In this document: positions 161 through 2,836 of the stretch, piece by piece
How the letters are laid out: the number at the start of each line of letters is the position of its first letter
How positions within the stretch are numbered: the stretch's first letter is position 1
IMG/VR virus record: IMGVR_UViG_3300005573_000072
Coordinates: 1 to 64,000 of that record
Length of the DNA stretch: 64,000 nt
Source: a virus
Reading direction: 5' to 3' (one strand)
Made by a program: the position numbers and the translations under genes
The notes under the pieces: generated by a model
The model's database searches: none
Told to the model about the DNA's origin: nothing
Seen by the model: the letters and a program-made list of their open reading frames with translations, nothing else

Positions 161-574
161 ATGGCGACAGAAAGAGGGATGGAGAATTATATACAATGGG
201 CATTCGCAAAGGAAATCATCGGTCCGTGGTATTGCACCAACTGCGGCAAGTACCCGGACATGATTAGTTGGACTTCATATTACACGGAAATCAGACGTTA
301 TCATACTTATAACGATCGTCACTGGGAAATGGCGGAACCGGATGAATGTGAATACTCCCATGACGATGACAGTGATATTACCTGCGATGAATGCGGTAGT
401 GATGTAATATATTACAGCGACTTTGACCGGTACACGCTGCGGGAGGCGTGGATCGCTGCCCGCAACGCTAACAGGGAACGTAGTGAAAAACCACCGTTGA
501 GTATAGACCAAATCTCAACCACAAGGCGAACAACTCATGAAACGCAGCAAGTGCGGATATGGGGCGACTGGTGA
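161..574 (+). CDS. Hypothetical zinc-binding protein
   Basis: AAAGGAGG RBS before ATG 161 (start corrected from 59). CTNC and CDEC motifs. Confidence 0.7.
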   Translation: MATERGMENYIQWAFAKEIIGPWYCTNCGKYPDMISWTSYYTEIRRYHTYNDRHWEMAEPDECEYSHDDDSDITCDECGSDVIYYSDFDRYTLREAWIAARNANRERSEKPPLSIDQISTTRRTTHETQQVRIWGDW

Positions 575-587
575 TAGGGAGGCTAAC

Positions 588-1229
588 ATGAGTAGAGATC
601 GAAATATCCACATTTCAATCGGTTGTGGCAGTCTCGCAATCGCATACTGGTTGCAACGATTGCCGACGCTGAAGAATCATCATATGATAGTATGTATTGA
701 CGGTGACAGATTCTTGCCCGGGCAATATGGATTGCCGGTTGCAGACGGGGAGCGTAAGGCGGAATGGTTGGCACGACTAATCCGCAATTATGGCTTTGAG
801 AGCGTTGGAATCCCGGTTTATGCAAGCAAGGAAGATATAATAGACATCGTCGGGGAACTCTCACCTTACGCTTACAGGGTTTACGTCCACGTAATGGCCG
901 ACGATTACGTTGACATGCCTTACGTGAATTACTTTCATGCATTAAACGTCGGTACAAGTGAGGACATCGAATTCATCGGTGGGAAACTACTTGACCGAGT
1001 CCTGATAGTAGACTGGTGGAACGATGTCCATGAATACCGCCGCGATAAAAGCGGTGGGTGGGTTACGGCGGGGAATGGGTACGGCACGTTCAACCCCGGC
1101 GTGGATCAACTGATTGGAATCTTTCATAACATTCGCAGCCGTAACCTGTATAACCAAGGGCGAATAATCGTGATATTGCAGGGAGAATCCCCTAACGATT
1201 ACCTGTATATCCCCGTGAGAAGAGGTTGA
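588..1229 (+). CDS. Divergent ThiF/E1-like adenylyltransferase-fold protein
   Basis: N-terminal Rossmann-type IGCGSL, then CIDGD, GERKAEWLA (cf. G.xKAE) and VMADD (cf. DxxDN). GGGAGG RBS before ATG 588. Adjacent to E2-like and JAB genes. Confidence 0.6.
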   Translation: MSRDRNIHISIGCGSLAIAYWLQRLPTLKNHHMIVCIDGDRFLPGQYGLPVADGERKAEWLARLIRNYGFESVGIPVYASKEDIIDIVGELSPYAYRVYVHVMADDYVDMPYVNYFHALNVGTSEDIEFIGGKLLDRVLIVDWWNDVHEYRRDKSGGWVTAGNGYGTFNPGVDQLIGIFHNIRSRNLYNQGRIIVILQGESPNDYLYIPVRRG

Positions 1230-1270
1230 TACGAGCGATAAGGAGGGGCTGATATTAAGGAGGGGCTGAT

Positions 1271-1699
1271 ATGAGTGATGAAAGGATAAGACGGTTTTTC
1301 AGCGATGAGCAATGCGAAATCCCACCAGGGTGGGTAAAAAAGGGTGACCGCCTATACTCTCCGATAGGCGTCCTACGCGTAACACGTGCGTTATACAGAG
1401 GGACATACTACCGACTAAACCCACCATGCATTTACCTAATTAAATTCATTTACAAGTTGAATAGGCGGGCACTTACTTGTGCAGGTCGGACCGTAGGGGA
1501 TATACCATATCATCCCCAAATAGGTATTGGTAATTTTTGTGACATGGGACTTGATACGGATTTGGAGCGCATCCTACCATCGGCGCTGCAGGTGTGGCAG
1601 GTGTGGAACCTTGACAGTGCGCTTGCAAGCGGACCCGAATACCGCCGATTTTTTGGTGAGAAAGAAGAGCTATGGGAAGTTGACGATGGAGGCGATTGA
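1271..1699 (+). CDS. Prokaryotic E2/UBC-like protein
   Basis: YHPQIGIGNFC resembles the E2 HPN-x-G-x-IC active-site segment, followed by WNLDS. Lies between the E1-like and JAB genes. Confidence 0.55.
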   Translation: MSDERIRRFFSDEQCEIPPGWVKKGDRLYSPIGVLRVTRALYRGTYYRLNPPCIYLIKFIYKLNRRALTCAGRTVGDIPYHPQIGIGNFCDMGLDTDLERILPSALQVWQVWNLDSALASGPEYRRFFGEKEELWEVDDGGD

Positions 1700-1930
1700 A
1701 TGAGCCAGATTATTGAACTAATGGCCACGAAGCTGATGGAAGCTTACCCCGAACGGTTTGCAATGCAATACCCACCTGCGCCATATATACGGCGCGGAGT
1801 CGGGGTGAATGGAAATAGGTATTACGTAAATAACGATAACGATATAATCGAGGTATGGGAGGGAGGAAATAAGATAGGTGAGTACCCATTGCGGTATGAG
1901 CAGTATAGAAGGGAGGCTGACTATGAGTAG
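1700..1930 (+). CDS. Hypothetical protein
   Basis: GGAGG RBS. Abuts the upstream stop and overlaps the downstream start. Confidence 0.65.
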   Translation: MSQIIELMATKLMEAYPERFAMQYPPAPYIRRGVGVNGNRYYVNNDNDIIEVWEGGNKIGEYPLRYEQYRREADYE

Positions 1931-2588
1931 GCAAGAGTGGGTGACAGTAGGAGATGAGTATCGTTGTTGTCCTTATGAAGCTACAGTGGCAATTGAACCG
2001 CAGGTAATCTGTAGCTTGATGAAACTGGTAAATGAGGTGAATACCGAATTCATGGTATTCGCCGTAGGGACGGCTAATGACAACTGTTTCCATGTAACCG
2101 ATGTGGAACTGCCAGAGCAAGAAGTATCTGGCACGTCCTGTCGACTACTTGGCACGTTAGAGATTAATCATGGCTATATCGGGGTAATCCATTCTCACGT
2201 AGCCATGGACGCCTTCCACAGTGGTACAGACGATGCCTATTTAGAGGTATTTCCCTTTTCCTTAGTACTCAACCGCATGGGCGACTATCTATTAAACGCC
2301 CGGGTGTTAACCCCGTGCGGAATCGTCATACGCAAAGAAACCAAAGGCCGCATTTGGGAGTTAGCTTCCGGGTGTACCGAATTCCCTACTGATAGGATTC
2401 ATCCCATGAAAGAATATATACCAATGCAAATACCGGCGTATAAAAATCGTTGGTATGAGTACGCTTGGGACGAGTACGACTGGGAATACGATGAGGGTTC
2501 TATTTGGGATGATATCGAGGGGGAAGAGGAAATCGAAACCAAGGAAGGCATGAAGACCAAAAAAAGACGGAAAGGAGGTGATAAGTAA
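1923..2588 (+). CDS. JAB/MPN+ (JAMM) metallopeptidase
   Basis: Upstream E (TEFMVF) and IHSHVAMDAFHSGTDD match HxHx7Sx2D. Acidic/basic tail. RBS before ATG 1923. Confidence 0.85.
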   Translation: MSRQEWVTVGDEYRCCPYEATVAIEPQVICSLMKLVNEVNTEFMVFAVGTANDNCFHVTDVELPEQEVSGTSCRLLGTLEINHGYIGVIHSHVAMDAFHSGTDDAYLEVFPFSLVLNRMGDYLLNARVLTPCGIVIRKETKGRIWELASGCTEFPTDRIHPMKEYIPMQIPAYKNRWYEYAWDEYDWEYDEGSIWDDIEGEEEIETKEGMKTKKRRKGGDK

Positions 2589-2785
2589 TGAATGTCAGCC
2601 CACGAAAAGGGCTGTATATGAGGGCACACTATAAAGGCCGTACCTATGAAGGGAAAGTCCACCACATCGCCCGTATGCGGTCCGGAGCGGTACTGGCTTT
2701 CCTCCAAGATTCGGATGGGGTAGTCTCCAAAAAAGGTATCCCCGTGAGCAAGTATGCCACGTGGGAGATTGTAAGAAAAGTGTAA
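2588..2785 (+). CDS. Small basic hypothetical protein
   Basis: AAGGAGGTGA RBS, TAATG coupling, followed by a terminator. Confidence 0.7.
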   Translation: MNVSPRKGLYMRAHYKGRTYEGKVHHIARMRSGAVLAFLQDSDGVVSKKGIPVSKYATWEIVRKV

Positions 2786-2806
2786 AGCTCCCCGCCTCTT
2801 TCCTGC

Positions 2807-2836
2807 GGCGAAGCTATAAAGCTTCGCCCTCTTTTT
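2807..2836 (+). terminator. Rho-independent terminator closing the E1/E2/JAB operon
   Basis: GGCGAAGCT-ATAA-AGCTTCGCC stem followed by CTCTTTTT. Confidence 0.85.

Follow-up and report, generated by a model that had tools for sequence, protein, structure and literature searches.

Introduction

Mobile bacterial operons encoding a ubiquitin-like protein (Ubl) together with E1, E2 and JAB proteins, some of them with a Zn-finger partner, are known from the literature (PMC1779556), and E1 enzymes that lack a catalytic Cys have likewise been reported (PMC11601596). Here we describe a gene cassette to be compared with these systems. It is located at the left edge of a window of 64,000 nucleotides of viral DNA (positions 1 to 64,000 of IMG/VR record IMGVR_UViG_3300005573_000072), where a preliminary description, made from the letters of the window, had proposed an E1-like, an E2-like and a JAB protein with no visible Ubl. 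In the literature that we searched, no complete phage-encoded kit of tag, E1, E2 and JAB was described.

The Bil system (BilABCD, bacterial ISG15-like) shares with the cassette, as it is read here, a separate Gly-ended Ubl, a separate E2-type Cys protein, a JAB deconjugase and a mobile operon, and neither of the two has a dedicated E3. Unlike Bil, the cassette has an E1 candidate of 213 aa without a catalytic Cys or a ThiF signature and a tag of 72 aa; it adds genes for a zinc-ribbon protein and for proteins of 76 and 65 aa, lies in phage-type DNA and gave no PADLOC or Pfam match to Bil. Bub (6E/DUF6527) resembles the candidate in its E1 without a catalytic cysteine and its JAB, diverged from the eukaryotic enzymes (PMC11601596). 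However, the Ubl-E2 and JAB-E1 fusions, oxyester chemistry and DUF6527 serine protease of Bub were not detected in the cassette, and ORF C of the cassette, unlike Bub, retains a Cys. Type II CBASS Cap2/Cap3 combines E1/E2-type chemistry with a JAB, as is proposed for the cassette, and this set without a Ubl is how the locus first looked; Cap2 fuses an E2 to an E1 and has a CD-NTase as its target, whereas the cassette has no CD-NTase, keeps its genes separate and includes a GG-ended tag. The operons of Iyer, Burroughs and Aravind from 2006 (rows 6a-6e) contain a Ubl, E1-like, E2-like and JAB proteins and a small metal-binding protein, as is proposed for the cassette, with which they also share mobility and a patchy distribution (PMC1779556). 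Those families are recognizable by profile (Prok-E2, ThiF, Prok-JAB), whereas in the cassette the JAB alone is. Lastly, TAPI (Ubl) and TAPK (JAB-NlpC/P60) of Lambda and T1 are a phage-encoded Ubl-with-JAB pair, as is also proposed for the cassette (PMC1779556); they belong to the tail module, have no E1/E2 and carry a JAB fused to NlpC/P60, whereas the cassette adjoins the replication/early region.

Results

Architecture of the cassette

The six ORFs of the cassette that lie in the window are closely packed or overlapping, and each is preceded by a GGAGG-type ribosome site (Table 1). Including DNA to the left of the window, the order is promoter, gene for the GG-ended Ubl candidate, zinc-ribbon candidate (ORF A), B, C, D, JAB, F and terminator, giving seven genes. 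These genes form a single transcription unit, which runs from a near-consensus promoter of host type to a terminator of its own; the ribosome sites are strong and the genes translationally coupled. The cassette stands out as a GC island (0.486, against 0.31 and 0.37 in the flanks): positions 250-3000 of the window have a GC content of 0.47-0.49, compared with 0.29-0.37 directly downstream and approximately 0.33 in the phage core. GC3 is 0.45-0.64 in the cassette genes versus 0.23-0.26 in polA, nrdD and dnaB. A plus-strand operon with its own terminator, richer in GC than the rest of the phage, had already been noted in the preliminary description, and the ORFs, the terminator and the shift in GC and GC3 all bear this out.

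Table 1. Positions of the features of the cassette in the window and, where marked L003, in the public contig that extends it to the left.
Feature	Position	Strand	Remarks
Sigma-70 promoter	L003:117-144		Upstream of tag gene; TTGACA-16-TACAAT, 11/12 matches, TG extension
Ubl candidate	L003:226-444		72 aa, C-terminus VVEGG-stop; first gene of the transcription unit, directly upstream of ORF A
GC-rich hairpin	L003:456-482		Between tag gene and ORF A; z -4.8
Poly-G/C assembly junk	1..112	.	Homopolymer runs in place of true upstream sequence
Intergenic spacer Ubl to ORF A, 3' part	113..160	+	Holds ORF A Shine-Dalgarno site AAAGGAGGTGG
ORF A, zinc-ribbon candidate	161..574	+	137 aa; two CxxC knuckles, C25/C28 and C76/C79
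ORF B, candidate E1-like adenylating enzyme	588..1229	+	213 aa; motif reading
Perfect tandem duplication	1239..1272	+	2 x 17 nt, TAAGGAGGGGCTGATAT; ORF C ribosome-binding region
ORF C, candidate E2/UBC-like carrier	1271..1699	+	142 aa; Y-H81-P-Q83-IGIGNF-C90
ORF D	1700..1930	+	76 aa; start abuts ORF C stop, end overlaps JAB start by 8 nt
JAB/JAMM metallopeptidase	1923..2588	+	221 aa; E...HxHx7Sx2D intact; Prok-JAB PF14464
ORF F	2588..2785	+	65 aa; start overlaps JAB stop by 1 nt
Intrinsic terminator ending the cassette	2807-2828 + T run (to 2838)	+	9-bp stem with 6 GC pairs, 4-nt loop

The left edge of the window and the tag gene

Over window positions 1-112 the word depth was 3400-5142, versus 32-83 elsewhere. 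The public contig L003, whose positions 472-5932 match window 113-5573 at 99.6% identity, reaches 471 bases further left, and these bases consist of AT-rich DNA holding the promoter, the Ubl candidate and most of the GC-rich hairpin. The absence of a Ubl from the window is an assembly artefact, poly-G having arisen at this hairpin. Hence the earlier statement that no Ubl was visible is accurate inside the window and does not hold for the locus, whereas the accompanying suggestion that the modifier might be encoded further left was borne out: extending the contig leftwards yielded both the promoter and the GG-ended gene that opens the transcription unit. The tag ORF is also predicted by gene callers in NCBI, JGI, Logan and ENA records, once on a contig of 43,960 bp, and the GG end is preserved in a variant of the protein.

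The product is a small protein ending, as ubiquitin-like modifiers do, in a free Gly-Gly, and we infer that it is a beta-grasp tag. It gave no match to a ThiS, MoaD or ubiquitin profile and none in Pfam at E ≤ 10. Against a ThiS/MoaD HMM of 11 sequences (one locus possibly from the unpublished genome G039) it scored -0.5 bits, which was equalled by 233 of 1000 shuffles; in the G001 scan with ThiS (E ≤ 1e-5), the contig was not among the listed matches. Rfam detected no RNA family in L003. With a GG-ended gene of this size joined to the cassette, a ubiquitin-like tag/JAB system becomes much more likely.

The JAB peptidase

The catalytic residues E42, H90-S-H92, S100 and D103 are all present, and the protein matched Pfam Prok-JAB (PF14464; 1878-2588) with an E-value of 1.6e-5 and 25.2 bits at a cut-off of 25. 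When the same model was run on the six-frame translation of the record, the score was 24.5 bits, slightly under the cut-off. In the PDB search the JAMM1 structures 5ld9/5lda aligned across the JAB motif. A relative, P0011, which is 26% identical and itself carries PF14464, has the block IGVIHSHVAMxAFxSGTDDA in common with it, and the whole catalytic block is invariant between the two. The reading as a JAB with an intact HxHx7Sx2D motif is thereby corroborated, and among the proposed E1, E2 and JAB enzymes it is the JAB alone whose sequence points to a family. Its C-terminus consists of an acidic, aromatic tail and, after it, a basic end. A polymorphic patch at codons ~26-62 (2000-2105) contains 21 of the 23 differences between the window and L003, with 9 amino acid changes within approximately 35 codons.

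ORF B, the E1-like candidate

Read by eye, ORF B has a Rossmann-type fingerprint, G12-C-G-S-L-A17, followed by I-D38-G-D40, ERKAE and ADD, and its C-terminus is RRG. No Cys occurs beyond residue 36, and the SNLxRQ Arg-finger loop of ThiF-type enzymes is absent or approximately 6 residues shorter. The motifs quoted earlier (IGCGS, IDGD, KAE, the RRG end), the lack of a Cys in the C-terminal half and the missing SNLNRQ loop are all found in the protein as described. The ThiF/E1-like assignment built on them fared less well, as no profile or fold test bore it out. An exhaustive phmmer search of 1.84 billion proteins (1.84e9 representatives) retrieved only ORF B itself, as did a word-based search; Pfam and NCBIfam (E ≤ 10), PHROGs, PADLOC and PDB gave no match. 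The ThiF HMM (PF00899) found no candidate on the record at E ≤ 10. Against a MoeB/ThiF HMM trained on 30 ThiF domains of Chloroflexota (1 of the 30 from the unpublished genome G039), ORF B scored -2.6 bits, equalled by 186 of 500 shuffles, and hhalign against the ThiF type gave a probability of 0.2%.

The single-sequence AF2 model of ORF B (pLDDT 45) is too poor for a fold test, and its best matches (VIA Z 5.7 to generic alpha/beta folds; Foldseek TM ~0.2) are at noise level. The ESM Atlas returned a weak Peptidase C39-like lead, with a score of 0.93 on 128 shared features only. A complex prediction of ORF B with ATP and the Ubl candidate had an ipSAE of 0.00, which bears on neither reading. 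ORF B is accordingly termed a candidate E1 on the strength of short motifs, size and context.

ORF C, the E2-like candidate

UBC domains have a core of about 150 aa and an HPN-type motif some 10 residues before the catalytic Cys, which lies near residue 85-93. ORF C has the HPQIGIGNFC motif that had been quoted for it, and in its 142 aa we find the HPx...Cys arrangement of a UBC/E2 protein, H81-P-Q83 with C90; the position of the Cys, the spacing and the length we take to resemble the UBC core. In a post hoc test on 471 six-frame ORFs of at least 100 aa, the pattern HP[NQ]-x5-8-C occurred once, in ORF C itself.

Neither the whole protein nor residues 60-142 matched any Pfam family at E ≤ 10, the Prok-E2 families and UQ_con included, and nothing was retrieved from PHROGs, PADLOC, NCBIfam, PDB or a word search; the UQ_con HMM (PF00179) found no candidate on the record, and the ESM Atlas gave no lead. 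The models (AF2 single-sequence pLDDT 43; Atlas pLDDT 0.35) are too poor for a fold test, with no Foldseek match and a best VIA Z of 3.0. No profile or fold test bore out the UBC/E2-like reading, and ORF C is a candidate E2 by virtue of a short motif, its size and its context.

The small ORFs, variants and relatives

ORF A matched zinc ribbons at sub-threshold level only (A2L_zn_ribbon, E 0.019; eL42 knuckle, E 0.07), and it may be an adaptor, an E3-like partner or a zinc module serving the E1-like protein; one variant of ORF A, which differs by a single substitution, is known. The same genes are present on further contigs of 43,960, 9,726, 6,922 and 2,264 bp; for the last, a variant contig, gene callers gave only shortened forms of B and C, of 181 and 52 aa respectively.

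The phage, plasmid, viral-contig and metagenome-contig searches uncovered no homologous operon and hence gave no evidence from conservation. A DNA search against phages yielded nothing, as did queries of viral contigs with B, JAB, a JAB alignment, P0011, the Ubl candidate, ORF 4544-4984 and a promoter 30-mer, and of metagenome contigs with ORF B and a 34-mer; tblastn of JAB, Ubl and ORF C against phages and plasmids gave chance-level rows only. PADLOC (E ≤ 1) matched none of the six window proteins to any anti-phage system model, including Bil and CBASS type II.

Linkage of the cassette to the phage core

The phage core was confirmed by polA, clamp loader, exonuclease, DnaB and NrdD. Logan contigs from two hot-spring runs, X1 and X2, cross the GC junction: X1 rec1, of 6,922 nt, spans 113-5327 and extends another 1,707 nt to the left; X2 rec14 spans 2046-5643. 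A chimera of the whole cassette at the GC junction at 2840 is ruled out, because contigs from both runs bridge it. Further to the right, the 5.6-kb left module has 1.5-1.9 times the depth of the core (82.5 versus 44.5 in X1; 32-34 versus 22 in X2) and meets it through a repeat/variant zone at ~5.3-6.36 kb. The physical link to the phage assumed in the preliminary description is thus upheld at the junction, bridged in independent assemblies, and is weakened by the difference in depth and by the join in a repeat zone.

That the cassette is foreign to the phage, the left module coming from another or a shared element and having been joined by the assembler via repeats, we consider rather unlikely. 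The ratio of depth between left module and core differs between the two runs, the assembly graph is fragmented at 5307-6350, a stretch that surrounds an inverted repeat at 5614-6000, and an alternative joint puts the cassette promoter sequence directly at 6362, the site of an 18-nt repeat. In the same direction point the right end of the ~95.5-kb contig, which from ~79.5 kb has 63% GC and looks like a mis-join, and the binning of L003 in an Anaerolineales MAG that contains neither the phage core nor this high-GC right end. Nonetheless, AT-rich DNA lies on both sides of the cassette within single contigs of several assemblies; X2 unitigs 14, 15 and 16 follow one another as in the window, with overlaps of 30 nt; the promoter and leader are also found joined to the phage gene at 6379; and the doubled depth could equally mean a long terminal repeat.

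Discussion

With confidence that is about evenly balanced, we propose that the cassette is a compact ubiquitin-like protein tagging/untagging kit of seven genes, acquired horizontally and set within AT-rich phage-type early/control DNA. The promoter, terminator, gene overlaps, GG-ended tag, JAB, HPQ-x6-C motif, ORF B fingerprint, hairpin and GC island argue for such a kit, together with the bridged junction, the confirmed phage core and the published precedents. Against it stand the lack of similarity of B and C to any E1/E2, the missing SNLxRQ loop of B, a tag that matches no profile, the C39-like lead for B, the failure of the searches to turn up a homologous operon, the shortened B and C calls on the variant contig and the depth of the left module. 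Taken together, the preliminary description was sound in its ORFs, terminator, GC shift, motifs, JAB, modifier to the left and continuity with AT-rich DNA; no test bore out the identities of the E1 and E2, and beyond the window the lack of a Ubl did not hold.

In the proposed mechanism, ORF B, which is Rossmann-like, would bind ATP and adenylate the C-terminal Gly of the tag. Because B has no catalytic Cys, the tag would pass straight to Cys90 of ORF C and from there to Lys residues of the targets, with the zinc-ribbon protein A, D and F perhaps serving as adaptors or specificity factors and the JAB stripping or editing the conjugates. The stable hairpin after the tag gene may hold expression of the tag above that of the enzymes. 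Since the sigma-70 promoter adjoins a repeat-rich control region, early expression would be expected, and the kit may have a role in host takeover or in rivalry with other phages.

A bolder form of this proposal, possible and still somewhat doubtful, is that a virulent-type thermophilic phage carries in its early/terminal region a complete, drastically minimised Ubl conjugation machine that tags proteins of the host or of rival phages. Its parts would be the 72-aa GG-ended tag, a 213-aa E1 without Arg-finger loop or catalytic Cys, a 142-aa E2 with a eukaryote-like HPx...C motif and a JAB eraser; the separate zinc ribbon would replace the zinc site of the E1 or serve as an E3, and every part except the JAB would be beyond the reach of current sequence profiles.

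Should only the tag and the JAB form a functional pair, an E1/E2 cascade would not exist, and the JAB would process, bind or recycle the GG-ended protein, or the latter would rely on host enzymes; B (for instance a papain-like C39-type peptidase or another Rossmann enzyme) and C would be unrelated proteins. All homology and fold tests for E1/E2 being negative or unusable, the Atlas lead for B and the phage Ubl and JAB pairs known without E1/E2 from tail assembly (PMC1779556) agree with this view. We nevertheless judge it unlikely, as the HPQ...C of ORF C is at the expected position of the UBC catalytic Cys and unique in the background, the GxGxxA...DxD fingerprint of B is spaced in a ThiF-like way, the seven genes are tightly coupled and the cassette is outside the tail module.

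Improbable, to a greater degree, is the same conjugation chemistry put to Bil-like defence or superinfection exclusion by tagging structural proteins of competing phages. Exclusion systems of this type are rare in virulent phages, and the surrounding core resembles that of such a phage, equipped with replication machinery of its own; PADLOC was empty for all six window proteins, and the two-domain E1 of the Bil type is absent. A defence role would nonetheless agree with a cassette that forms a compositional island and brings promoter and terminator along, with the polymorphic patch of the JAB, with the conjugation of a Ubl to a phage tail protein by Bil (Ubl, E2, JAB, E1; 10.1101/2023.09.04.556158; PMC11601596) and with the high mobility of Ubl operons (PMC1779556). 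The presence in the cassette of a GG-ended tag of its own weakens the idea of a counter-defence that pairs a decoy E1/E2 with a tag-stripping JAB.

The DNA comes from a hot spring, and TtuB-type carriers are in use among thermophiles. A sulfur carrier of the ThiS/MoaD/TtuB type, adenylated and thiocarboxylated at its GG end to yield a thiolated cofactor or nucleoside with the JAB acting as in CysO/Mec+, is nevertheless very improbable even with sulfur-transfer neighbourhoods of ThiS/MoaD-like, E1-like and JAB proteins on record (PMC1779556), as the cassette has no rhodanese, cysteine desulfurase, ThiG, MoaE, CysM or TtuA-like acceptor enzyme, the tag does not match the ThiS/MoaD profiles and pathways of this type have no place for a Cys protein that bears an E2-like motif.

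Returning to the tagging/untagging kit, a practical lesson is that poly-G introduced by the assembly at a GC-rich hairpin had hidden its "missing" modifier. Ubiquitin-like conjugation in prokaryotes has so far been described as a bacterial weapon against phages, in Bil, CBASS Cap2/Cap3 and Bub. An active cassette would mean that this chemistry is also used on the side of the virus, and with very small forms of E1 and E2 that current profiles miss, such that systems of this kind may be undercounted.

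Operon structure and the gene left of the window

The virus record is a linear contig of 95,554 bp (CheckV 56%), and the window comprises its first 64 kb. Positions 1–112 are poly-G/C homopolymer junk, where the word depth in the source runs reached 3400–5100 as compared with 30–80 elsewhere. A GGAGG-type ribosome site precedes each of the six window ORFs listed below, and the C/D, D/JAB and JAB/F pairs abut or overlap. The cassette forms a GC island (0.47–0.49) with AT-rich DNA on either side; GC drops to 0.29–0.37 immediately after it and is about 0.33 in the core of the contig, and GC3 is 0.45–0.64 in the cassette ORFs versus 0.23–0.26 in polA, nrdD and dnaB. 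Judged by its ORFs, ribosome sites, GC and GC3, the six-ORF plus-strand operon with a terminator and raised GC reported in the preliminary description is real. The ribosome-binding region before ORF C is perfectly duplicated in tandem (2 × 17 nt, 1239–1272).

Features of the cassette and its leader (window positions unless prefixed with L003, a near-identical public contig that reaches further left)
Feature	Position	Strand	Remarks
Sigma-70 promoter	L003:117-144		TTGACA-16-TACAAT, 11/12 matches, TG extension; best of the region
Ubl candidate ORF	L003:226-444		72 aa; strong ribosome site upstream; starts MTWELDGDYFTING, ends YQVRFVVEGG-stop
ORF A	161-574	+	137 aa, two CxxC knuckles
ORF B	588-1229	+	213 aa
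ORF C	1271-1699	+	142 aa
ORF D	1700-1930	+	76 aa
JAB	1923-2588	+	221 aa
ORF F	2588-2785	+	65 aa
Terminator	2807-2838	+	9-bp stem, 3' of ORF F

L003 (DAOTVW010000312.1; 5,932 bp) came to light when GTDB genomes were pattern-scanned using the alignment of JAB. It is binned in an Anaerolineales MAG, and its bases 472–5932 match window positions 113–5573 at 99.6% identity. Its leftmost 471 bases, additional to the window, are AT-rich (GC 0.31) and carry the promoter and a 72-aa ORF ending in Gly-Gly, in line with one of the options raised earlier, a modifier encoded to the left; the statement that no ubiquitin-like protein (Ubl) is visible applies to the window only, this ORF being a candidate. 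Gene predictions from several sources include this ORF, in one case on a 43,960-bp contig, and a one-residue variant retains the GG end; that contig and another of 9,726 bp encode the ORFs of the cassette as well. A stable GC-rich hairpin (L003:456–482, window about 97–123; the region folds at -35.3 kcal/mol, z -4.8) separates the tag gene from ORF A and may serve as an attenuator or mRNA stabiliser. The break of the IMG/VR contig coincides exactly with this hairpin, where the assembly collapsed into poly-G, explaining both the junk sequence and the apparent lack of a Ubl.

From its length, its free diglycine, its place at the head of a JAB operon and its alternating strand/helix pattern, we infer that the 72-aa protein fits a ubiquitin-like beta-grasp. 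It gave no match to ThiS, MoaD or ubiquitin profiles; the loci used in the ThiS HMM test included one from an unpublished genome, G039.

The JAB peptidase

JAB is the sole cassette protein with family support, B and C having none in the same searches. The Pfam Prok-JAB model matched it with an E value of 1.6e-5 and 25.2 bits (cut-off 25), and scored 24.5 bits when run on the record. The motif E...HxHx7Sx2D is intact, the entire zinc-site block is held in common with a distant relative that is 26% identical (P0011), and the motif can be aligned to archaeal JAMM1 structures; the earlier assignment as a JAB peptidase with an intact motif is thereby upheld. The window and L003 show 23 differences, of which 21 are packed into 106 bp at 2000–2105 (JAB codons about 26–62), resulting in nine amino-acid changes, and one of two hot-spring metagenome runs, X2, contains a separate short contig spanning 1955–2075. 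Either this patch was acquired by recombination with a diverged allele, or the N-terminal region of JAB is diversifying here.

ORFs B and C as E1 and E2 candidates

By reading, B, previously described as E1-like, shows a Rossmann-type fingerprint consisting of GCGSLA, IDGD 26–28 residues on and then ERKAE, and C, described as E2-like, contains Y-H81-P-Q-x6-C90, a pattern that a post hoc test found in C alone among 471 background ORFs. Whether whole or as halves, neither protein matched anything in Pfam, PHROGs, PADLOC, NCBIfam or PDB sequences; the ThiF and UQ_con models run on the record yielded no candidate at E<=10, and an exhaustive phmmer search of 1.84 billion representatives with B returned B alone. 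Our own HMM, built from 30 Chloroflexota ThiF domains (one from G039), scored B at -2.6 bits, a value equalled by 186 of 500 shuffles, and hhalign gave 0.2% for B. Single-sequence AlphaFold models had a pLDDT of 45 (B) and 43 (C), with Foldseek/VIA output on both amounting to noise, and the ESM Atlas lead for B, to C39-like peptidases, was weak (score 0.93; 128 shared features only). In a 2,264-bp variant contig (proteins P0005, P0007, P0013, P0003), B is called from Met33 only (181 aa, lacking the Gly-rich loop) and C from Met92 only (52 aa, past Cys90); either both genes are disrupted there or the contig contains errors.

Linkage to the phage

The contig has a phage core, with genes for polA, a clamp loader, an exonuclease, DnaB helicase, NrdD and thymidylate synthase. 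Between 98 and 99% of the words of 121–5600 are present in the two hot-spring runs. In X1, a 6,922-nt Logan contig spans 113–5327 plus 1,707 nt further left, and in X2 a 3,598-nt contig spans 2046–5643; these cross the GC junction near 2840 and rule out a mis-join there. The cassette is hence continuous with its AT-rich flanks, but its join to the core is less straightforward. Depth over the left module (113–5600) exceeded that of the core (6350–9000) at 82.5 versus 44.5 in X1 (1.85x) and 32–34 versus 22 in X2 (about 1.5x), as would fit a long terminal repeat or a module common to several genomes. An inverted repeat lies in the stretch from 5307 to 6350 over which the assembly graph breaks up. 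An 18-nt repeat in a ribosome site region, GAAAGGAGGTGAACAAAA, occurs at the end of the cassette leader (L003:165–182) and at window 6362–6379, before the gene starting at 6379, and one X1 contig fuses the cassette promoter and leader straight to position 6362; together these suggest a 6.2-kb indel or a mosaic boundary. Given the depth excess, the graph fragmentation and the promoter-to-6362 join, the 5.6-kb left module can be read in three ways, as a long terminal repeat, as a segment that two or more genomes have in common or as a variable insertion. Overall, we consider it likely that the cassette is truly part of this phage lineage.

At the other end of the full contig, beyond the window (79,500–95,554; L004:2500–18555), GC rises from about 0.33 to 0.48–0.69 (mean 0.63) at a boundary without junk, and this high-GC segment was not found in the MAG holding L003. 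From about 79.5 kb onwards, high-GC bacterial DNA has probably been misjoined to the phage, making this end of the contig chimeric. Another locus of the MAG has a GC of 0.474 as against 0.486 for the cassette, a weak hint to the source of the cassette or its host.

Beyond the terminator, a 1.2-kb non-coding, AT-rich stretch (2850–4050) holds at least six iteron-like copies of TTTAAGCCAAATTT in both orientations, a 24-nt tandem pair (3717–3764) and a phased A-tract array with a period of 10–11 nt (3783–3893), and has the appearance of an origin, packaging or control region.

Proposed mechanism and relation to known systems

In the mechanism that we propose, transcription from a host-type early promoter would begin with the tag gene and continue into the genes of its enzymes. 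The tag would be adenylated at its C-terminal Gly by B. Since B has no Cys beyond residue 36, Cys90 of C would receive the tag directly and hand it on to lysines of the targets. Specificity would come from A, D and F, and JAB would edit or remove conjugates. Of these elements, the operon structure, the JAB and the GG end have been shown, and the remaining steps are inferred. That the tag and JAB act together is quite likely, and the chances that the cassette is a complete conjugation kit are about even. A pure decoy plus tag-stripper is an unlikely reading, since the cassette has its own tag, and a sulfur-carrier pathway is very improbable because the acceptor enzymes are absent.

Precedents are found in mobile operons of bacteria that combine Ubl, E1, E2 and JAB with Zn-finger partners (PMC1779556), in Bil (10.1101/2023.09.04.556158; described in PMC11601596) and in Bub, which has an E1 devoid of a catalytic Cys (PMC11601596). 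The type of system is already known. The literature searched contained no description of a complete kit encoded by a phage, and the collections searched contained no homologous operon, the cassette being a single locus with no conserved counterpart in them. If it is such a kit, what would be new is its setting in phage-type DNA, together with parts that are extremely divergent and small.
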